14,119 bases of DNA, taken from an uncultured bacterium. Lineage in GTDB: Bacteria; SAR324; NAC60-12. The notes below the pieces were generated by a model, which did no database searches, was not told where the DNA came from, and saw nothing but the letters and a program-made list of their open reading frames with translations. The DNA lies in contig CAXGMD010000081.1 of assembly GCA_964010765.1 (NCBI GenBank), forward strand, positions 1-14,119, given 5' to 3'. The translations under genes and the position numbers were made by a program. Each line of letters begins with the position of its first letter. Positions within the stretch are counted from its first letter, which is position 1. This document shows, piece after piece, positions 434 to 11,887 of the stretch.

Positions 434-466
434 GGGGGGGAAATTTTGCCCCAAATCAAAGGACAG

Positions 467-1465
467 ATGTCTACAAAGTCTAGGGTCCCTACAATTTCTC
501 AAATTGCTGAACGAGCTGGTGTCGCCCGCTCTAGCGTTTCCCGGGCATTTACCAGGCCTGAGCTCTTGAGCTCAACGACTGTTTTACGGATCAAAAGAGT
601 TGCGGAAGAACTAGGTTACGTTCCAAATTCCAGTGCAAGAGCATTGAGTACTGGAAAAACAGGGAACATTGCTTTCTTGGTGCCGGATGTGTCAAACCCC
701 TATTTTCCACCGATGATTCGATCCGCACAATTAGCAGCAGAAAATTTGGATTACTGCGTATTCTTGGCTGATTTTGAAGAAAGCGGAGTGAAGGAAGAAA
801 AACTGATCGAAAGATTTGCCGGGAAAGTGGAGGGGGTCATTTTAATTTCCTCGCGAATGCCAGAAGAGCGTTTAGAAGGGTTAGCAGAAAAAATCCCAAT
901 AGTTCTGGTAAACCGTGATGTTTCGGTTATTCCAAGGGTATTGATTGATGCTGGGTCAAGTTTGAAGCAAGCGGTAAGGTTGTTAGCCCATCAGGGTCAT
1001 CAAGAAATCGCTTACTTGAGTGGGCCATCTGTGACATGGACAAATAAGCAAAGGCAGGCAGCAATTTCTGAGGTGACAAATGAACTTGGCTTACGACTCG
1101 TCATCATTCCTACTGAAAAACCCTCATTGGAATCAGGTCAAGCCGTGGTAGATCAGATGATAAAAAGCGGAGTAACAGGAGCAATTGCGTTCAATGACCT
1201 GATTGCTCACGGAATTATGACTGAATTGGATTCACGGTCCTTGGCAGTGCCAGACTCTTTCAGTATCGTTGGATGTGACAACTCAATTTCCCCTTTCACA
1301 AATCCTCCGTTAACCAGTGTATCGAATGAAACTACCGAGGCAGGAAAAATTGCCTGTGAGATGATTATGGGGGTTCTTGGTGAAATGAACTCAAAGAATG
1401 ATCAAAGCAAAGTCTTAGAAACACTACTGATTGAAAGAGAAACCATCGGACCACCATGCAAGTAA
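467..1465 (+). CDS. LacI/GalR family transcriptional regulator
   Basis: N-terminal HTH TISQIAERAGVARSSVSRAF, hinge LGYVPNSSARAL, and sugar-binding domain motifs (VPDVSNPYFP, AFNDLIAHG, VPDSFSIVGCDN, PPLTSV). ATG at 467 with AAAGGA RBS is preferred over TTG at 446. Confidence 0.95.
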   Translation: MSTKSRVPTISQIAERAGVARSSVSRAFTRPELLSSTTVLRIKRVAEELGYVPNSSARALSTGKTGNIAFLVPDVSNPYFPPMIRSAQLAAENLDYCVFLADFEESGVKEEKLIERFAGKVEGVILISSRMPEERLEGLAEKIPIVLVNRDVSVIPRVLIDAGSSLKQAVRLLAHQGHQEIAYLSGPSVTWTNKQRQAAISEVTNELGLRLVIIPTEKPSLESGQAVVDQMIKSGVTGAIAFNDLIAHGIMTELDSRSLAVPDSFSIVGCDNSISPFTNPPLTSVSNETTEAGKIACEMIMGVLGEMNSKNDQSKVLETLLIERETIGPPCK

Positions 1466-1495: not shown

Positions 1496-2224
1496 TTATA
1501 AGTGCTCGCTCAGAAAATCTTTGAGTTCCTCCCATGACTGTCGGTCAGCTGATTCATTGTAACCAACGGGGATCCCATATTTTTGTCCTAGCGCTGTAGT
1601 AGCTGGATTTGTGAAACCATGAAGTGCATCAGGGTAGGTTTTGATTACATAATCAGCACCGAGACGATCCATTTCTCTGCTAAATTCCTGAACATTTTCA
1701 GAAGTTACCATTGCATCCGCTTCCCCGTGACAAACCAGAATTTTTGTATGAACATCTCCTGATTCCGCCTGATGATTGGCCCCCAAAGCGCCATGGAAAC
1801 TTGCGACTGCACGAAGTGGCCAACCTTTTCTGGCTGCATGTAAGACTATTGCTCCTCCGAAACAATATCCGATTGCCCCTAATCGGTTAGCATCTACTTC
1901 AGACTGACTTTTCAGAAAGTCCAATGCGGCAAGTACTCTTGCTTCACCATCCTCCATTTTGCTGAGGACTCCATTCATCAATGAACCAGCCTCTGCTGGA
2001 TCGGATGCGATTTTACCTTCCCCATACATATCAACAGCCATTGCCACATAACCAAGCTCAGCCAATTGTTTGGTTCTGAGTTCAAGATATTCTGTGAGAC
2101 CCCACCATTCAGGGAAAACCATTACTCCTGGAAAGGAAAATTCTGCCTTTTCTGGTTTTGAAATAAAGCTCTTCATTACTGTTGAGCCAGCACTGTATGC
2201 TACCCTTGCTGATTCGATTGGCAT
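1496..2224 (-). CDS. dienelactone hydrolase family protein
   Basis: PEWWGL, nucleophile elbow GYCFGG, CHGEAD and catalytic His in YPDALHGF; AGGAGG RBS upstream. Confidence 0.92.
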   Translation of the reverse strand: MPIESARVAYSAGSTVMKSFISKPEKAEFSFPGVMVFPEWWGLTEYLELRTKQLAELGYVAMAVDMYGEGKIASDPAEAGSLMNGVLSKMEDGEARVLAALDFLKSQSEVDANRLGAIGYCFGGAIVLHAARKGWPLRAVASFHGALGANHQAESGDVHTKILVCHGEADAMVTSENVQEFSREMDRLGADYVIKTYPDALHGFTNPATTALGQKYGIPVGYNESADRQSWEELKDFLSEHL

Positions 2225-2286
2225 GGACTTCCTCCTTGAAGAGAGTTTTTAAGATTGGATAGACTTTCTGTCAGTTTTTCATCTTC

Positions 2287-2315
2287 TTGACAGACTAAAT
2301 AAATGAATTTATATT
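2287..2315 (+). promoter_or_regulatory. near-consensus sigma70 promoter for the rpoA-like gene
   Basis: TTGACA (2287-2292), 17 nt, TATATT (2310-2315). Confidence 0.7.
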
Positions 2316-2321
2316 GTAATG

Positions 2322-2484
2322 TTTATCTTCCCACACATTCCGTTAAATCCCTTACGGAGATAAACTCGCTTTCATCACGAAAGCTGAACTCAATGCAAAG
2401 CTTTTTTACACCGAACTGGCGCCCCAAACAAGTTTTGCAATGAATCGGCTTCATTTTCTTTCCGCCCTTGCCTTACGGAGAAAT
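2322..2484 (+). promoter_or_regulatory. putative structured 5' leader of rpoA-like mRNA
   Basis: Four consecutive stem-loops (2338-2359, 2368-2384, 2390-2443, 2455-2483) and an 11-nt direct repeat CCTTACGGAGA (2350-2360 and 2471-2481); the second copy contains the RBS. Confidence 0.4.
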
Positions 2485-3552
2485 ATGAGCAACCTCAAGC
2501 TTTTGTCTGAGGTCAGCCTGCCCCAGAGCCATCAAGCACCTGAAATATATGTTCAGAATTGGACCAACCTTGCGATGCCAAGCAGAATGCGGGTTGATCA
2601 CCGAACTCTCACTTCTTCCTATGGAAGATTCACGATTGAACCACTAGAGCAAGGGTACGCTGTCACTCTGGGCCATTCACTGCGCAAAACCCTACTTGTT
2701 TCCATGAATGGGAGTGCAATTGTGGCTGTGAAGATTGATGGAGTGAAAAAGTCCACAGATGAACTTAAGGGGGTTCAAGGTGGATTGATGAATTTACTAT
2801 TGAATTTAAAGGAAGTTGAGGTCAACCATCAGGATGATGGGATGATTGAGCTTGATCTCACAATTGCTCCAGGTGGTAAATTGGTGGGGAGTGACCTGGC
2901 TGCAAATGGTGAAATCAAAGTCCGCAATCCAAATAAAGAAATTATCCAACTGGAAAAGGGCGTTGGCCTACAATTGAAATTGTATGTCAACAAAGGCCGA
3001 GGATATGTAACCGCTGAAGAGAATGAGAAGCTGAAATTGCCCAAAGGAACGCTGTATCTAGATTCTTACCATTCTCCAATTCGAGAGATTCGATACGAGG
3101 TTGAAAACGCCCGCGTAGATCAGAGGACTGATTACGATCGCCTAATCTTTGAAATCTGGACTTCTGGGACAATCAGCCCCCAGGATAGTCTGGCTAGGGC
3201 GGCTTGGGTCTTAAGAAAACAGTTGGGGCTTTTCATCCATTTTGATGAAAACATTTCCGCAATCCCCATGAATCGCCAGGTCACAGAAGAGCCAGTGCCA
3301 CTGTCTCCAGACTTGTATCGTCCTGTGAGTGAGTTGGAGCTTTCAGTGCGCTCGATCAATTGCCTTCAAAATGCCAAGATTGACTTCATCGGAGAATTGG
3401 TTCAACGAAATGAAAATGAACTGCTTCAAATGAAGAACTTTGGTCGAAAATCATTGAATGAAATCAAAGCAATCCTCATTCAGATGAATCTTTCGTTGGG
3501 AATGGATATCGAAGGATTCGATCCTGACAGCCCTCCTGACAGCGATTTTTGA
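2485..3552 (+). CDS. rpoA: DNA-directed RNA polymerase subunit alpha (divergent, stand-alone copy)
   Basis: Alpha NTD motifs (FTIEPLE.G...TLG..LR, LLNLK, GRGYV, SPI..I.YEVENARV.QRTDYDRL..EIWT.GTISP) and a CTD (ELELSVRSINCL...IGELVQ...KNFGRKSLNEIK). ATG at 2485 with GGAG RBS is preferred over 2440. Confidence 0.93.
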   Translation: MSNLKLLSEVSLPQSHQAPEIYVQNWTNLAMPSRMRVDHRTLTSSYGRFTIEPLEQGYAVTLGHSLRKTLLVSMNGSAIVAVKIDGVKKSTDELKGVQGGLMNLLLNLKEVEVNHQDDGMIELDLTIAPGGKLVGSDLAANGEIKVRNPNKEIIQLEKGVGLQLKLYVNKGRGYVTAEENEKLKLPKGTLYLDSYHSPIREIRYEVENARVDQRTDYDRLIFEIWTSGTISPQDSLARAAWVLRKQLGLFIHFDENISAIPMNRQVTEEPVPLSPDLYRPVSELELSVRSINCLQNAKIDFIGELVQRNENELLQMKNFGRKSLNEIKAILIQMNLSLGMDIEGFDPDSPPDSDF

Positions 3553-3561
3553 TGAAATGAA

Positions 3562-3602
3562 TTGGAGAGGAACCAAAAGTTCTCTCATTGGGTCCTCTCC
3601 AA
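3562..3602. terminator. likely bidirectional intrinsic terminator between convergent rpoA and phytase-like genes
   Basis: TTGGAGAGGA (3562-3571) pairs perfectly with TCCTCTCCAA (3593-3602), with an inner CCAA/TTGG extension and A/T-rich flanks. Confidence 0.7.
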
Positions 3603-3622
3603 ATTTCGTTTAAATCGCCTAC

Positions 3623-5791
3623 TTAATGAATCTTGCCGATTGACCAGAAGAATGTTTCTCCCGAACTATCGTCTACCCCGTCATTATCAGTAGAAACAAA
3701 CATCTCTCCACCCTCATTGATGGCAAGTCCCTCAATCTTATCCACAACAAATCCTCCAAACTGCTTTAAATCAGGGATCAAGTCTTTCACTAATTCTTTG
3801 GAGACGACCGGTAACTTTGAGCTGTTTAGTAGTTGTGGGACCATCTCACTGGCAGGAATCCGATAGATTTTTTTCGTGATTGCGGCATCCCCAATCTGGT
3901 TATCACGTTCGATCACGTAGAAAAAATCTCCATGGGCAACAATCTCAGACATGCCCACCCAGCCTTTGCTTGGCTTGGCCTTTTTGTAGTAAACAGCCCC
4001 CCATTCCCCAGAATCCGTGTTGTAAGACACTAACTTCACATGATCTTTTGGATCATCTTGCCATTCGCGCTGAGTGACCATCCACAGTGTGTTACCAACA
4101 CGGGTAATTCCTTCAAACCCAAAGCGTTTTTCTACATTCAGCAATTGAGGAGGCAGAGAGACTTCCTTTTTGATCTCGCCTTTCGCATTTACATGGTAAA
4201 GGCCATGAGGAATCATGCGATCTGTTCTACCTTCCGATGCTACCCAAAACCCATCTTTGCCATCAGTTGTTATACCCTCAAGATCTAGTTTTTGGGCCGG
4301 ATATCCAGCACGAGTGATGGGGATTCGCTTAACAATCCGTGCTGGCTTTGAGCTTGGATCAATCACGAATATGGTGGGTTGATAACCATAAAAACTGTCG
4401 TTTACGGCATAGATCATCCCGTCAGATTTGGCAACCATTCCAGAAATGGCACCCCAACCGATCAGCTCTGAAGCACCAGCGGATGTCAAGGTAGGGTAGG
4501 TAGCTGGAGCGTCCTGATACTCATAGATCATCACATGCGCTCTCACCCCGCCATCTTCAACCAAATCAACTTCGTTGGCTGTTGCAAAAAGATTTCTCTT
4601 TGGAAGGGCAATCGCCCCTTCAGGAGAAAGTCCTGAGGGAAGCAGCTGTTTCAGCACAGGATTGCTCGGCACGCTCATGTCGTAAACCCCGACTACCGAA
4701 CCTCTTTCAGAGAGCAGGAACATGAAAGGAGTACCATCAAAAGAGGCGAATTCCATCCCTTCCGGCTCTACTCCCTTAGCATCTGAACGTTTGTCTGGAT
4801 AGTGGCCAATCTCAATCAAAGCTTGCTCAAACTTAGCTCCACTTTCATAAACGAGTGTCCCATCCCTCTTGAAGACTGTGAATCCACGACTGCCCCCATC
4901 CATATCACCTTCGTTGGCGATCGCGAACAAGTCATTGTTTAGCCACTGGATACCATCAGGTTCTCGAAGTCTATTTTTCTGCGAGCCATTAAAAATAAGA
5001 GCACCCCGTTCATCCAGAACATCAATCTTTTCAAGGTCCGTAGCTCCTGCGCTGAAATTTGAGATGATTTTCCCATCTCGATCCACCACGGTGATATGAT
5101 TGTTTTCTTGAAGGGTCAACACGGTTTCACCGAGATCGTTGATGTCTACAAATTCCGGTTCAGGATCTTCCGCTCCAATACTTGCCAAGCCTGTCAAGTT
5201 AACCCGCTTCATGGAACCACAAACGAGGTTACCATCACGAACAGAGATCATCACTAGATCACCCGCCGGCATCTGAGGAATTCTTCCATCCCCCAGGTCC
5301 TCATCTCTTTCATTTTCGATGGCTATTGAGATGAATGATCCATCAGGGGCGGAAGCAGTGCTGTCAGGTTGACCGCCCAGTTCACATCGATTGATCTCTT
5401 TTTGGGATTTCAAGTCAATCACATGAACATTACCAGAGGGATTCTTGAAGCTCTCAGAAGTGTTAACTGCCACGAAAGCAGTATTCCCAATCACTGAGAC
5501 GGCAGTAGGTTCTCCCTGCATTTTGAGATTGCCCAAAGCCTTTGGGTCAAGTGGATCTTGAATATCAATCATCCCAATGACCCCAAGCGGGCTATCAGTG
5601 TAGACAAGAATATTTCCATCAGCTGAAGCCGAAATGATCTCAGCAGAACTTTCTTGTTTGGTGTCCTCACCAGTTGCCATGTTGAGGTAAGTCGGAAAGG
5701 ATGAAATTCTGTTGAAATTTTTAGCTGCTTGGACAGCACCGGAAGTTCCCAGGGTCAAGGCGAGGGTTGCCACGAACCATTTAAAGGACAT
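3623..5791 (-). CDS. secreted alkaline-phosphatase-associated beta-propeller (choice-of-anchor-I-like) plus esterase-like-activity-of-phytase domain protein
   Basis: Sec signal peptide (MSFKWFVATLALTLGTSGAVQA), SAEII, GGQPDS, AIENE, DPEPE, EPDG, ANEGD, RSDAKGVEPEG, SPEG, and C-terminal DLEGI, VASEG, GFEGI, ERDN, KIEGL, TDNDG motifs. Confidence 0.8.
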   Translation of the reverse strand: MSFKWFVATLALTLGTSGAVQAAKNFNRISSFPTYLNMATGEDTKQESSAEIISASADGNILVYTDSPLGVIGMIDIQDPLDPKALGNLKMQGEPTAVSVIGNTAFVAVNTSESFKNPSGNVHVIDLKSQKEINRCELGGQPDSTASAPDGSFISIAIENERDEDLGDGRIPQMPAGDLVMISVRDGNLVCGSMKRVNLTGLASIGAEDPEPEFVDINDLGETVLTLQENNHITVVDRDGKIISNFSAGATDLEKIDVLDERGALIFNGSQKNRLREPDGIQWLNNDLFAIANEGDMDGGSRGFTVFKRDGTLVYESGAKFEQALIEIGHYPDKRSDAKGVEPEGMEFASFDGTPFMFLLSERGSVVGVYDMSVPSNPVLKQLLPSGLSPEGAIALPKRNLFATANEVDLVEDGGVRAHVMIYEYQDAPATYPTLTSAGASELIGWGAISGMVAKSDGMIYAVNDSFYGYQPTIFVIDPSSKPARIVKRIPITRAGYPAQKLDLEGITTDGKDGFWVASEGRTDRMIPHGLYHVNAKGEIKKEVSLPPQLLNVEKRFGFEGITRVGNTLWMVTQREWQDDPKDHVKLVSYNTDSGEWGAVYYKKAKPSKGWVGMSEIVAHGDFFYVIERDNQIGDAAITKKIYRIPASEMVPQLLNSSKLPVVSKELVKDLIPDLKQFGGFVVDKIEGLAINEGGEMFVSTDNDGVDDSSGETFFWSIGKIH

Positions 5792-7879: not shown

Positions 7880-9324
7880 ATGAAAAATACCAGTTTGACC
7901 AGTCGGCCTGGAAATGGCCTGGCTCGCAGTGAAATTCCGTTGGCTGATTTGATTCATGTTAGCGAAAAAGAGGAACCTCCATCCTCTGGCTTTCAGGCCT
8001 GTTCAAATGGCCAAACAATCTCACCATCCCTTCCTTCAACCAGCCTTAATTTTCAATTCCCATTCAAGCCCAAAAAAGTTTACAGCTTTCCTATCTCCCC
8101 ATCTTCCAAAATTTTCTACACGAACTTTTGGCCAGGAACCTCAGCTGAACAATGGAATGACTGGCAGTGGCAGTTAAAAAACAGAATTCGCTCATTGAAG
8201 GATTTGGAGCGGATTTTCGAGTTGAGTGAAGATGAGAGAGAAGCTGCTTCACAACATCGAGACTCTTTGCCTGTTGGGATCACTCCCTATTATGCCAGTT
8301 TGATGAGCAGGACTGATTCTCAGGATCCTCTGCGAAGAACGCATGTACAGGTAGGCCAGGAATTTATCAGAAGTTATGGTGAAGACGATGATCCTCTAGG
8401 GGAAGATGGCAGTACTGTCGTTGAAGGACTAGTTCACCGTTATCCTGACCGAGTTCTGTTTCTTTCAACAGGGTTTTGTTCAACGTACTGCCGTTATTGT
8501 ACCCGTTCACGCATGGTTGGCAGCACAGGGAAGTATCGTTTTGGAACCGAAAGATGGAACGCAGCCCTGAATTACCTGCGAAGTCACAAGGAGGTCAGGG
8601 ATGTTTTGCTAAGCGGTGGAGACCCACTCACACTCCCAGATGACCGACTCGATTGGTTACTGACCCAACTTCGCTCTATCAAACATATAGAATTTGTGAG
8701 AATTGGTACAAAGTGCCGATCGTCCTACCCCAGAGGATCACTAAGGATTTGGTCAAGATCCTTCGGAAGCACAAACCATGGATGAGTCTTCACTTCACCC
8801 ATCCGACTGAGCTCACTCCTGAAGTCAAAAGATCCACCGCCAGACTAGCAGATGCAGGACTTCCACTCGGGAGCCAGACTGTGCTGCTTGCTGGGATCAA
8901 TGACTCAGTAGAGACACTGAAAAACTTGTTTCATGGTTTGCTGAAGAATCGTGTTCGGCCTTACTACCTGTTCCAATGTGACCCAATCAAAGGTTCTGCA
9001 CATTTCAGAACCCCTGTCGAAAAAGGTTTGGAAATCATCAAAGGGCTACGTGGACATACAACGGGCTATGCAGTTCCAACTTTCGTGATTGATGCACCTG
9101 GTGGTGGAGGGAAAATTCCATTGCTTCCAGAGTATTTATTGGGTCGGGAGGGAGGTGATCTCGTTTTCAATAATTTCGCAGGTCATCAGCATCGGTATCC
9201 TGATCCAGATGGCACTTTGGCAGAAGATCGAATCTTCACAGCTGATAATCTTCCGAGCGAAATAGTTATGAATGGATCAGTCCACACAGACACTTATGGT
9301 GAAGGAGGTGTCCCATGCGCGTAG
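7880..9324 (+). CDS. kamA: KamA family radical SAM/PLP lysine 2,3-aminomutase-like protein, split by a -1 frameshift at about 8710 (about 481 aa when rejoined)
   Basis: ORF 7880 carries WNDWQWQLKNRI, ITPYY, DPLGED, HRYPDRVL, CSTYCRYCTR (CxxxCxxC), LSGGDPL and RIGTK. ORF 8653 continues KVPIVLPQRIT, HFTHP, SQTVLL.GIND, RPYYLFQCD, GLRGHTTG and the PLP lysine motif DAPGGGGKIP. The halves join seamlessly as RIGTKVP. Confidence 0.9.
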
Positions 9325-10364
9325 GTCTTTGTTATGATCTGCGCCAGGATTACTTAGATGCTGGATTTAGTGCAGAGCAAACCGCTGAATTTGATGCCCC
9401 TGAAACAATTGATGCCCTTGAATTTGTCTTGAGAACTAGGGGAGAGCAAGTTGAACGCATTGGCCATTTGCAGTCCCTCGTCAACAAGTTAGCAAGGGGT
9501 AAACGATGGGATTATGTCTTCAGTATCGCTGAGGGAATCTCGGGAATTGCAAGGGAAGCACAGATTCCTGCTCTTTTGGAGGGGTATGGAATCCCCTGTG
9601 TTTTCTCTGACCCAACGATTCTTTCGCTCACGCTTGACAAGGCAGTTACAAAAAGGATTATCCGAGACGCTGGAATTCCCACAGCCGATTACAGAGTTTT
9701 GAGAAATCCTGGTGATCTTGAAGAATTCTCACTTCCGTTCCCCGTTTTTGCGAAACCGCTGGCTGAAGGAACTGGCAAAGGAATTAGTGCCCATTCTTTT
9801 GTCGAGGATCTTGAAGGGTTGACTCTGCAAACCCAAAAACTTTGGCAAAAGTACTCTCAGCCTGTCTTGGTGGAACACTATCTGTCAGGCAGGGAATTCA
9901 CGGTCGGAATATTGGGGCAGGGCAAAAGAAGTCAGGTAATCGGGGTGATGGAAGTCACGTTTAAGGAATCAGCAGAATCCTTTGGCTATTCTTACGAAAA
10001 CAAGGAGCACTACGAAGCAAGAATTCAATATAGCCTAGCAGATGATGCTGAAGCAAAACGGGCAGGTGAAGTTGCTCTTCAAGCTTGGCAGGCTCTTGGT
10101 TGTCGGGATGGGGGGAGAGTAGATATTCGCTCCAATGAATTTGGGAAACCTCATTTTATTGAAGTAAATTCCTTAGCAGGATTACACCCTGAACGTTCTG
10201 ATCTGGTCATTTTAGCTGGCATGGTAGGGTTGAGTTATGCCGATTTGATCGGAAAGATTCTTGATGAATTTTTAACAGATTTGCCAAACAGAAAAATCCC
10301 TCATGGTCTACCCAGGTTGCGTCCGTTCCGCTCTCGAAGTCTGAGGTTCAGAAAAGCATTGTGA
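9315..10364 (+). CDS. Ddl-like ATP-grasp amino-acid ligase 1 (not canonical D-Ala-D-Ala ligase)
   Basis: AEG..G..RE.Q.PALLE, DK..TK, KP..EGTGKGI, E.YLSGREFTVG, GRVDIR, FIEVN motifs; lacks the Ddl N-terminal GGxSxE motif; strong GAAGGAGG RBS; start overlaps the kamA end. Confidence 0.88.
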   Translation: MRVGLCYDLRQDYLDAGFSAEQTAEFDAPETIDALEFVLRTRGEQVERIGHLQSLVNKLARGKRWDYVFSIAEGISGIAREAQIPALLEGYGIPCVFSDPTILSLTLDKAVTKRIIRDAGIPTADYRVLRNPGDLEEFSLPFPVFAKPLAEGTGKGISAHSFVEDLEGLTLQTQKLWQKYSQPVLVEHYLSGREFTVGILGQGKRSQVIGVMEVTFKESAESFGYSYENKEHYEARIQYSLADDAEAKRAGEVALQAWQALGCRDGGRVDIRSNEFGKPHFIEVNSLAGLHPERSDLVILAGMVGLSYADLIGKILDEFLTDLPNRKIPHGLPRLRPFRSRSLRFRKAL

Positions 10365-11380
10365 AAGCGCTGAGAATTGTCTTGGCTTATGGAGAGGTGG
10401 GACTAAACCCCTCTCCAGACCAACAGGACACTTTGAATCAAGTCGATTCCATTCAGTCAGTGCTCAGATCTTTTGGCCATGAAGTTCATCTGCTTGCACT
10501 GACTCTAAATCTTGGATTGGTGGACTCTTTTCTAAGAAGGATCAATCCAGATCTGGTATTCAATCTAGTCGAGTCAATTAACGGGCTTGCCACATTTGTT
10601 CCGACCGTAACAGCTTTCTTTGAAGACTTCGGGCTTCCGCATAACTGTTGTAGTAGTAGCGCACTTAGACTTTCAAGCAACAAGCTTACTAGTCGCAAGG
10701 TTCTTCAAAACGCCTGTGTCCCGCAGGCTCCCATCTTTGGAGAGACGCCCCTACTAACGAAGTCTACTCCATTATGGATTGTTAAGTCTGTTGACGAGCA
10801 TGCATCTTTTGGCATTGATCAAACATCGGTCGTGGATAGTTCCAAGGTAGCCCAAAAGATATCCTCTATAAGTGCCTCATTGGGAGGTAACTGGTTTGCC
10901 GAACAATATCTCCCAGGGAGGGAATTCAACGTTTCAATTCTTGAAACTCTTAAAGGCCCCAAAGTCTTGCCTGTAGCAAAGATCGAGTTTGAAGGGTTCG
11001 AGGGCAACGAGATCCGTTTGGTAGATTATGCCGCTAAGTGGAACACTGAAAGTGAAGCCTTCCTTCGAACACCGAGAAGATTTCCCCAAAAATGCTTCAA
11101 TTCTCAATTATTTGAACAACTTGAAGAGTTATCGCTTCGATGCTGGAACCTTTTCAGCCTGAATGGAGCTGCTCGGGTTGACTTTCGCCTTGATGAAGGG
11201 GGTCAGCCTAGAATCCTTGAGGTTAATGCCAACCCGTGTCTAAGCCCTGGTGCAGGCTTCTCAGCCTCGGCAGATCAAGCAGGAATCAGTTTCCAAGAGC
11301 TGATTGAACAGCTTGTTGAAGCTGGGCTTAGAAATTCCTCAAACTTCCATTTTCCCGTCATCACTCAGAAAAATGCTTAA
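10361..11380 (+). CDS. Ddl-like ATP-grasp amino-acid ligase 2
   Basis: LVFNLVES, NK..S, IVKS..EHASFGI, EQYLPGREFNV, DY.AKW, ARVDFR, LEVNANP motifs; GTGA start/stop overlap with ligase 1. Confidence 0.88.
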   Translation: MKALRIVLAYGEVGLNPSPDQQDTLNQVDSIQSVLRSFGHEVHLLALTLNLGLVDSFLRRINPDLVFNLVESINGLATFVPTVTAFFEDFGLPHNCCSSSALRLSSNKLTSRKVLQNACVPQAPIFGETPLLTKSTPLWIVKSVDEHASFGIDQTSVVDSSKVAQKISSISASLGGNWFAEQYLPGREFNVSILETLKGPKVLPVAKIEFEGFEGNEIRLVDYAAKWNTESEAFLRTPRRFPQKCFNSQLFEQLEELSLRCWNLFSLNGAARVDFRLDEGGQPRILEVNANPCLSPGAGFSASADQAGISFQELIEQLVEAGLRNSSNFHFPVITQKNA

Positions 11381-11425
11381 AGCCCTGATAGCAAAAAACC
11401 CCAAGGATGGACGTGGCGAAAAGTT

Positions 11426-11887
11426 TTGAATTCTGATGACGTCGGCAAGATCACCGATTTGGTTCAGGAATGTGGAAACTTTCGTGAGGATGAGATTGAA
11501 ATCGCTACTGAACTTGTTCAGGAGCATCTCAACAAAGGTGTGTCCAGCGGTTATGAGTTTCTGCTGTTAGAAAAAGCCGATCTTTTAGGGGCATTTGCTT
11601 GTTGGGGACCCATTCCAGGTTCTGTCGGAAGTTACGATCTTTATTGGCTGGCTGTTGCACCAGACTTCCAAGGTGCTGGATTCGGAACTTTGCTTTTCAA
11701 GGAGAGCATCCAGCAGATTTTTTCTCAAGGCGGTCGACAAGTTTTCATAGAGACATCAAGCCGGGATAATTATCTCTCTGCACAACGATTTTACCAGCGA
11801 CAGGGTGCTGAATTGATGGCTCGGCTGCCAGATTTTTACCAAATCGATGATGACAAGCTGATTTTCTGCGTCAGGCAATTGACCTAA
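11426..11887 (+). CDS. GNAT family N-acetyltransferase (true start uncertain; the frame is open from 11381)
   Basis: Acetyl-CoA binding motif A YDLYWLAVAPDFQGAGFGTLL and motif B IETSS...AQRFY..QG; last gene of the kamA operon. Confidence 0.88.
   Translation: MNSDDVGKITDLVQECGNFREDEIEIATELVQEHLNKGVSSGYEFLLLEKADLLGAFACWGPIPGSVGSYDLYWLAVAPDFQGAGFGTLLFKESIQQIFSQGGRQVFIETSSRDNYLSAQRFYQRQGAELMARLPDFYQIDDDKLIFCVRQLT

Follow-up and report, generated by a model that had tools for sequence, protein, structure and literature searches.

In the textbook view, bacterial RNA polymerase (RNAP) is assembled on two alpha subunits that are identical and form a homodimer. To our knowledge, Francisella provides the sole experimentally studied bacterial alpha heterodimer, and the Francisella RNAP structures (PDB 6wmp, 6wmr and 6wmt) list both alpha chains. 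According to the available text of the 2011 study of this system (Mukhamedyarov et al. 2011, PMC3294249), alpha1, encoded by rpoA1 in the ribosomal-protein operon, keeps Arg45 and has the substitution K200T, and alpha2, encoded by rpoA2 elsewhere, has Gln45; in vitro work showed that the two heterodimerise and are both needed, a duplication specific to the lineage, with acceleration after it, was concluded, and more such cases were predicted. A 2026 review of alpha-like subunits also describes the homodimer, and in the portion of its text that was available Francisella has 0 occurrences and bacterial heterodimers are unmentioned (PMC13374769). Here we analyze a stretch of 14,119 nucleotides (the window; contig CAXGMD010000081.1 of assembly GCA_964010765.1, forward strand) from an uncultured bacterium of the SAR324 lineage (GTDB Bacteria; SAR324; NAC60-12), in which a gene for the RNAP alpha subunit, rpoA, stands outside the ribosomal-protein operon and is referred to below as the orphan. 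This gene would give a SAR324 genus a second, functional alpha subunit (alpha2-like), and we put at roughly 60% the probability that it takes part in an oriented alpha heterodimer in which beta is bound by the operon copy and beta' by the orphan. A literature search for SAR324 rpoA and for rpoA paralogs or duplications returned no report of a SAR324 two-alpha case, the Francisella paper being the sole relevant match among the matches listed.

The orphan rpoA occupies positions 2485-3552 of the forward strand as a stop-free open frame of 355 amino acids (aa) with a complete N-terminal domain (NTD), linker and C-terminal domain (CTD). Its product matches the dimerisation domain (PF01193, 63.9 bits), the inserted domain 2 (PF01000, 62.5 bits) and the C-terminal domain (PF03118, 85.2 bits), all above the Pfam cut-offs and together the architecture of RpoA, and it passes the NCBI rpoA equivalog models TIGR02027 (303.2 bits, cut-off 227.8) and NF003513 (363.7, cut-off 302). 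Its best solved relative is the alpha subunit of PDB 7ye1, and E. coli alpha aligns over residues 13-328. The orphan was aligned to E. coli alpha (PDB u213) by HMMER, and also by MAFFT with K-12 rpoA; in the first part of the NTD, the E. coli (Ec) residue number equals the orphan residue minus 23.

The source assembly (266 contigs totalling 3.86 Mb; completeness 92.4%, contamination 1.3%) also holds a second rpoA on contig C58, whose product is 46% identical to that of the orphan. Because it lies between the S11 and L17 genes, with S13, secY, L15, L30, S5, L18, L6, S8, S14 and L5 upstream, this copy occupies the canonical ribosomal-operon position. The preliminary description of the window had proposed searching the ribosomal-protein operon for a second rpoA and had regarded an only rpoA in the genome as evidence against a specialized paralog; the order S13-S11-rpoA-L17 on C58 shows that an operon copy is present and co-occurs with the orphan. 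Both rpoB and rpoC are single copy in this genome. The arrangement is like that described for Francisella, which also has two differing rpoA genes, of which only one is in the operon. As a side observation, the operon of this genome has no S4 gene (rpsD) between S11 and rpoA, and the gap there is 48 nt (L003 8057-8106, C58).

Footprinting of E. coli alpha, as given in the available text of PMC3294249, showed that beta protects residues 30-55 and 65-75 most strongly and that beta' protects 175-185 and 195-210 most strongly; Arg45 is critical for beta binding, and beta' binding is impaired by K86A, V173A and insertions at 180 and 200, the insertion at 200 blocking it. Our alignments indicate that the two SAR324 copies have lost complementary docking surfaces. 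On the beta side of the orphan, the helix H1 and alpha-motif segment (aa 52-73, Ec 29-50; positions 2638-2703, forward strand), which is inside the beta-protected 30-55, differs from E. coli at R33Q, G36A, N41H, R45K and S49V (ERGFGHTLGNALRRILLSS in E. coli, EQGYAVTLGHSLRKTLLVS in the orphan). The loop (aa 87-100, Ec 64-77; positions 2743-2784, forward strand), which overlaps the beta-protected 65-75, is degenerate: VLHEYSTKEGVQED in E. coli becomes VKKSTDELKGVQGG in the orphan, replacing V.HEF....GV.ED. A generic alpha would carry Arg45 and a beta-side loop with H66, E67, Y/F68, E76 and D77, and the orphan has instead R45K and the loop KSTDELKGVQGG. It is doubtful that the orphan could act as a generic alpha able to fill both positions; its membership of the family by homology stands.

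The beta' side presents the reverse picture. In the orphan the conserved motif YEVENARVDQRTDYDRLIFEIW (aa 204-225, Ec 185-206; positions 3094-3159, forward strand), which lies in and beside the beta' footprint, is intact, and so are K86, GRGY and ARVDQRTD (R191). Over Ec185-206, three representative relatives have YEVENARVGQKTDYDRLIFEIW, YEVENSRVDQRTDYDRLNFELW and YEVQNARVGQQTEYDKLIFELW, whereas the operon copy reads YKIFTQTIDEQ-EQDQLDMEVW. Over Ec186-203, a segment that overlaps the beta'-protected 195-210 and covers position 200, relatives and orphan share ENARVxQxTDYDRLIF (ENARVDQRTDYDRLIF in the orphan) and the operon copy has FTQTIDEQ-EQDQLDM. The motif that is intact in the orphan as ENARVDQRTDYDRLIFEIW is replaced in the operon copy, which keeps R45 and the beta face; neither copy is changed at K86, 173 or 180. 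The two alignments reproduced the comparison with E. coli alpha given in the preliminary description, both the substitutions (R33Q, N41H, R45K and the loss of H66, E67, Y68, E76 and D77) and the retained residues (K86, GRGY and ARV.QRTD with R191). The description's reading of the gene as a paralog confined to the beta' side has sequence-level support in the operon rpoA and in the complementary decay that it had proposed to look for there (R191T, deletion of T196 and a change of position 200 to Q).

We then used 30 single-copy relatives as the reference for conservation, in which 152 columns are at least 90% conserved. Thirty-one of these are altered in the orphan only, 10 in the operon copy only and 12 in both (mostly gap columns). 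The orphan-only changes include G36A, R45K, S49A, H66K, E67S, F68T, E76G and D77G; the substituted positions are 100% conserved in the 30 relatives, six of them also in E. coli and a distant outgroup, and by this comparison the orphan substitutions exceed chance. The changes confined to the operon copy include P30A, I183V, E186K, R191T, Q194E, the T196 deletion and F203M, with Q at position 200. Where E. coli and the distant outgroup are identical too (74 columns), the orphan is altered at G36, R45, S49, E67, E76, D77, G106, I115, I223 and E226, and the operon copy at P30, R191 and G279. As in the published account of Francisella, R45 is kept in the operon copy, where position 200 has been substituted (K200T in Francisella, Q in SAR324), and the non-operon copy is changed at R45 (Q in Francisella, K in SAR324). 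Compared with that account, the decay of the beta'-side motif in the SAR324 operon copy is far larger (about 15 of 20 residues and one deletion), the beta-side loss of the SAR324 orphan is centred on the 64-77 loop, and the two SAR324 copies are 46% identical to each other.

The asymmetry can be expressed as mean BLOSUM62 loss relative to the consensus of the relatives, which in the beta footprint reaches 1.86 for the orphan against 0.82 for the operon copy, and in the beta' footprint 0.86 against 2.14 (Mann-Whitney one-sided p = 0.0096 for the contrast). Furthermore, variation within each clade, which is independent of the changes on the stems, appears to repeat the beta/beta' asymmetry. In the orphan clade (8 rows), 14/37 columns are variable in the beta footprint versus 2/27 in the beta' footprint (p = 0.0076), and 9 of the 14 loop columns (Ec 64-77) vary. 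Over Ec184-206, a segment chosen post hoc, the operon clade (11 rows) is variable at 14/23 columns versus 41/212 in the rest of the NTD (p = 5e-5), and the orphan clade at 2/23 versus 88/212 (p = 0.0014).

The dimer-interface residues of E. coli alpha are 35, 38, 39, 46, 50 and 227 (PMC3294249, available text). They are little changed in the SAR324 copies, with T46 in both and Y at 35 in the orphan, which differs from Francisella, where homodimers are described as disfavoured. A model of the two NTDs as a heterodimer gave an interaction prediction score from aligned errors (ipSAE) of 0.71, versus 0.00 for the best of 3 controls; the ipSAE mark is reached by 116/157 solved complexes and by 2/215 mismatched pairs. 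Model runs agreed in at least 95% of contacts, and the predicted local distance difference test (pLDDT) value of the partner was at least 83. The pass may reflect memory of the many solved alpha dimers, and it shows likeness only, not hetero versus homo. The modelled interface consists of helices H1 and H3 and the N-terminal tails, and the degenerate segments are unlisted in it, unlisted residues being merely uncertain. Separately, we noticed an N-terminal NW motif that is invariant in relatives, kept in the orphan and lost in the operon copy; the tail bearing this motif touches the partner in the NTD dimer model.

To describe the selection acting on the two genes we used Nei-Gojobori estimates for 10 pairs among 5 genomes. 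The ratio of nonsynonymous to synonymous change (dN/dS, omega) of the orphan is 0.051-0.116 in the nine pairs whose dS is 0.37 or more, and 0.21 in the closest pair; that of the operon copy is 0.012-0.039, and 0.09 in the closest pair. Both copies are under strong purifying selection, and dN of the orphan is about 3 to 13 times that of the operon copy. Relaxed selection and lack of expression had both been named in advance as findings that would speak against a working subunit. The first is contradicted by an orphan omega of 0.05-0.12. As to the second, about half or more of the words sampled from positions 2285-3620 occur in each of 14 metatranscriptome runs, and in 4/4 runs checked, from four studies, contigs cover the orphan gene, one of them spanning 2112-3760. 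These RNA-library contigs fit transcription of the orphan, short of proof. In one run (X9) the contigs of the gene region all fall inside 2407-3627, but these limits were discarded as transcript boundaries, since contigs do not mark starts or ends and gaps between them carry no proof.

The alphas of this genus are the lowest-scoring full-length alphas of the phylum (297-315 bits versus 333-377 in other genomes), while their rpoB is ordinary (1814-1818 bits, within the family range of 1769-1847 for full-length matches); the acceleration is therefore specific to alpha. In free tree searches (LG+G4, and a quick LG+C20 tree with posterior mean site frequencies, PMSF), the operon clade falls inside the family on a stem of about 0.5 (0.48). 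The orphan clade has a stem of about 0.9 (0.88), plus a 0.52 stem shared with the single copy found in genome G001, which it joins at an unresolved basal position of the order (Shimodaira-Hasegawa-like approximate likelihood ratio test, SH-aLRT, 99, flagged with a warning for long branches). The LG+G4 tree omitted L049-L053 (repeats of G-handle loci with identical BLAST figures), L038, L040, L048 (partial), L003 (duplicate of L002) and L062 (fragment), and the LG+C20 PMSF quick tree omitted five near-identical operon-copy rows. A tree that holds all 12 genus paralog rows together is 0.22 log-likelihood units better than the free search, with p = 0.53 in the approximately unbiased (AU) test. 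Because this constrained tree is not rejected, a single in-lineage duplication followed by acceleration would be compatible with the data. In addition, E at Ec129, S at Ec208 and N at Ec311 are common to both paralogs and occur in 0/30 relatives, which favours recent common ancestry or gene conversion. The pattern recalls the published Francisella trees, in which both branches are likewise accelerated, in-lineage duplication is unrejected and free searches give long basal branches. Horizontal acquisition of the orphan is disfavoured, since there is no closer relative among 5.8 billion proteins and the AU test allows a common origin, although it still has in its favour the place of the orphan at the base of the order in the free tree.

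We examined the distribution of the two types in a phylum survey of 88 genomes, 9 of this genus and 79 others. Both alpha types are found in 7/9 genomes of the genus. In G003 the orphan runs into a contig end; in G004, an assembly of 67% completeness, the operon type alone is present. A seemingly split orphan in G006 was considered as a frameshift and rejected, as the break is a run of N in the scaffold. Outside the genus, two alphas occur in 0/79 genomes, 76 having one and 3 none at E <= 1e-40; within this survey, two full-length alphas are restricted to one SAR324 genus. Among 5.8 billion proteins, the orphan family is found at 100, 89, 88 and 73% identity and then drops to at most 52%, and the operon type is found in the protein database at 99, 96 and 79%, followed by ordinary SAR324 alphas at 69% or less. 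The most distant member of each series, P0004 (73% identical to the orphan) and P0124 (79% identical to the operon type), form a deeper pair with the same pattern in partly different residues. Another protein, P0125 (78% identical to the operon copy), was dropped as an assembly chimera: it resembles the alpha of another SAR324 genus in its N-terminal half (as does P0037) and our genus's operon copy in its C-terminal half, and it is probably from a chimeric metagenome contig.

Genome G001 is a deep branch of the genus, with an RpoB 85% identical to that of the source genome versus 98-99% in the main clade and 72-74% to sister genera. It has one rpoA match, at 52% identity. We rejected its reading as a single-alpha genome, since this rpoA is non-operon and the assembly is without L17, S11 and SecY, so that an operon copy would be unseeable. 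The gene (L039, G001:C9:72869-76876) is flanked by a hybrid histidine kinase and by a small open reading frame (ORF), signal peptidase II and hisS. Its product has an intact beta' motif and a partly changed beta face (G36A, S49A, S50A, H66D and D77N), and looks like an early stage of the orphan type. It is without the three residues shared by the paralogs and shares G36A, S49A, L88V, M289L and K317D with the orphan. The G001 copy, then the P0004/P0124 pair, then the main clade would thus present graded living intermediates, and such survivors distinguish the SAR324 case from Francisella.

Several observations weigh against an oriented heterodimer or leave parts of it less secure. When the footprints are taken strictly as predefined, the statistics are weak or mixed: a Fisher test on conserved columns in the strict footprints ([[6,2],[1,4]]) gives p = 0.10, 24/161 circular shifts of the footprint labels match the observed contrast, and beta versus beta' variability in the operon clade is not significant (4/37 versus 7/26, p = 0.18). 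The orphan loss of 1.86 in the beta footprint compares with 1.92 in the rest of the NTD, and the orphan is diverged throughout domain 2. R45K is a conservative change, and P0004 retains R45. The role that the preliminary description gave to R191 in beta' association is presumed here. The interface residues appear to give no argument against homodimers, unlike those of Francisella. The G001 copy, which groups with the orphan and is without the shared residues, gives conflicting indications of when the duplication took place. The RNA-library contigs also cover neighbouring genes, and DNA carry-over is possible. Finally, the contacts were assigned from E. coli footprinting as quoted in the available text of one paper (PMC3294249), not from a structure analyzed here.

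The C-terminal domain of the orphan (aa 274-331; positions 3304-3477, forward strand) contains the PF03118 match and has kept its DNA-binding residues. Both copies keep E261, R265, N268, C269, G296, K298 and S299, which we take to be the DNA-binding and sigma-contact surfaces; the DNA-binding residues among them, R265, N268, C269, G296, K298 and S299, are identical in the two. The orphan differs from relatives at Ec 276-277, 284-287, 289, 291-292, 317 and 318, as well as in the linker, and these positions presumably overlap the activator-contact "287" surface of E. coli alpha. Because the orphan CTD surface differs in this way, the two regulatory tails are probably non-equivalent.

These differences could instead reflect an alternative or condition-specific alpha that stands in for one operon alpha or for both in a fraction of the RNAP molecules, in homodimers or in mixed dimers with no fixed orientation, its main role being regulatory and its diverged CTD surface and linker recruiting other activators or promoters. 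We consider this explanation unlikely, though it deserves attention: the CTD changes are clustered and spare the DNA-binding residues, a sigma-70-like promoter of its own separates the orphan from the ribosomal operon, and the largely unchanged interface makes several dimer species conceivable, as in the proposal of up to four RNAP species first made for Francisella (Charity et al. 2007, as summarised in the available text of PMC3294249). However, if the operon copy filled both positions, it would be hard to explain why its ENARVxQxTDYDxL motif is destroyed and that of the orphan conserved, and the invariant beta-face residues lost from the orphan argue against orphan homodimers assembling with beta. 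That same loss, together with the intact DNA-binding residues of the CTD, would suit a free regulatory protein acting off RNAP, such as a DNA-binding protein or a decoy to which alpha-CTD-binding factors attach. This is improbable, as the whole NTD, including K86 and the motif of the beta' footprint, is strongly constrained, the protein is still above the rpoA equivalog cut-off, and the reciprocal decay of the operon copy would be unexplained. An artefact (a mis-binned contig from another organism, or a functionless recent or decaying copy) could draw on the draft state of the genome with its 266 contigs and on the long branch of the orphan clade at the base of the order, but it is largely refuted and very improbable, given the same gene with the same neighbours in 7/9 genus assemblies and in a single-cell assembly record (L051), an estimated contamination of 1.31%, a composition typical of the genome (GC content 0.448 in the orphan, against 0.453 in its contig and 0.464 genome-wide), the low orphan omega, the jump from 73% to at most 52% identity in the protein search, and an AU test that leaves common origin with the operon copy unrejected.

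We therefore return to the oriented heterodimer, which could have arisen as follows. A lineage-specific duplication of rpoA would have been followed by divergence, in which the operon copy kept its beta-binding face and lost the ENARVxQxTDYDxL motif in the beta'-protected region, and the orphan kept this motif and lost the invariant HEF/ED loop, with R45 changed to K on the beta-protected face. The RNAP core would then be assembled on an oriented heterodimer, the operon alpha serving as alpha-I on beta and the orphan as alpha-II on beta', and both rpoA genes would therefore be indispensable. In its genomic and sequence features (two genes, their positions, complementary determinants and acceleration of both) the SAR324 case appears to be of the Francisella type, but it would be of independent origin, in another phylum and in a free-living marine lineage; and where the Francisella account provides proof in vitro, we infer heterodimerisation, orientation and mutual dependence from the genes. 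Paralogs of rpoA are also described in Chloroflexus spp. and Streptomyces avermitilis, which resemble SAR324 in having two rpoA in one genome; the available text reports no drastic substitutions in their dimerisation or beta/beta' regions and regards them as maybe equivalent (PMC3294249), whereas both SAR324 copies carry such substitutions. Asymmetric alpha-like pairs are otherwise represented by archaeal Rpo3/Rpo11 (D/L) and eukaryotic Rpb3/Rpb11 and AC40/AC19, in which, as far as the available texts go, one partner only has the R45-type surface towards the second-largest subunit (PMC3294249, PMC13374769). The SAR324 copies differ from these in that both are full-length bacterial alphas with domain 2 and CTD, neither being shortened, and no need for Rpb10/12-type partners is implied. 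For the stronger claim that the SAR324 heterodimer is obligate and of fixed orientation, evolved independently of Francisella through complementary decay, and represents a bacterial re-run of the Rpb3/Rpb11 and archaeal D/L step, we see about an even chance.

Turning to the surroundings of the gene, we placed its start at 2485 because orthologs P0002-P0004 all begin with MSNLK and a GGAG Shine-Dalgarno sequence (2477-2480, forward strand, read from the sequence) stands 4 nt ahead of the ATG; an alternative start at 2440 (a 370-aa ORF) was dropped on these grounds. The preliminary description had given the gene its own promoter and terminator, and this holds in part. A consensus scan found a sigma-70-like promoter, TTGACA-17-TATATT, upstream of the gene (2287-2315, forward strand) with 11/12 matches, but the region scanned has 3 promoter-like sites versus 2.4 expected, a count not above chance, so that the site is a pattern match only. 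A hairpin at 3551-3610 (forward strand; free energy -25.7 kcal/mol, z -5.1), equalled by 0/200 shuffles, lies between the convergent rpoA and phytase-like genes and is a probable bidirectional terminator; its U-tract is weak, and a consensus terminator scan gave no call there. The neighbours, a hydrolase and a phytase-like gene in the preliminary description, were borne out by Pfam: a LacI-family regulator (446-1465, forward strand) and a dienelactone hydrolase (DLH; 1496-2224, reverse strand) lie upstream, and the phytase-like gene (3623-5791, reverse strand) downstream; the gene is away from the ribosomal-protein operon. The order LacI-DLH-rpoA is conserved in 9/9 loci with the main orphan type (6 genomes), and the two upstream genes are given as context only. 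The phytase-like gene is full-length in the window and reduced to short remnants (37-56% identity; L034, L037, L049 and L051) in some genomes of the genus, where a VTT-domain gene sits close behind.

Farther along the window, a lysine-2,3-aminomutase-like gene is apparently split in two, an ORF at 7880-8785 with a partial Radical_SAM match overlapping one in another frame at 8653-9324 with LAM_C, and is followed by two D-Ala-D-Ala-ligase-like ATP-grasp genes (9315-10364 and 10361-11380) and a GNAT acetyltransferase (11426-11887). The region 7880-11887 could be a cluster for a beta-lysine-derived product, with a frameshift or assembly error in its first gene. In two relatives of other genera, ORFs apart from the normal rpoA (G022:C28:564798-565307 and G016:C71:51400-51852) each have two tandem alpha-CTD-like domains, in open frames of 733 and 511 aa, respectively, matching TIGR02027 positions ~216-298.

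If the heterodimer is real, it would be a second, independent case, from an abundant, free-living deep-ocean lineage, and its clean reciprocal decay of docking surfaces, together with living intermediates, would show that evolution can repeat the passage from a homodimer to an obligate heterodimer. It would also offer a natural system for the subfunctionalisation of an essential homodimer and for the position-specific roles of the two alpha tails. For genome surveys that use rpoA as a single-copy marker, the orphan copy would cause this genus to be flagged as contaminated or to be misplaced in trees. For the bacterium itself, an oriented dimer would make the two tails positionally and chemically distinct; with each CTD tied to a position, and given the diverged surface of the orphan CTD, non-equivalent tails may address different activators or UP-element positions in this lineage.

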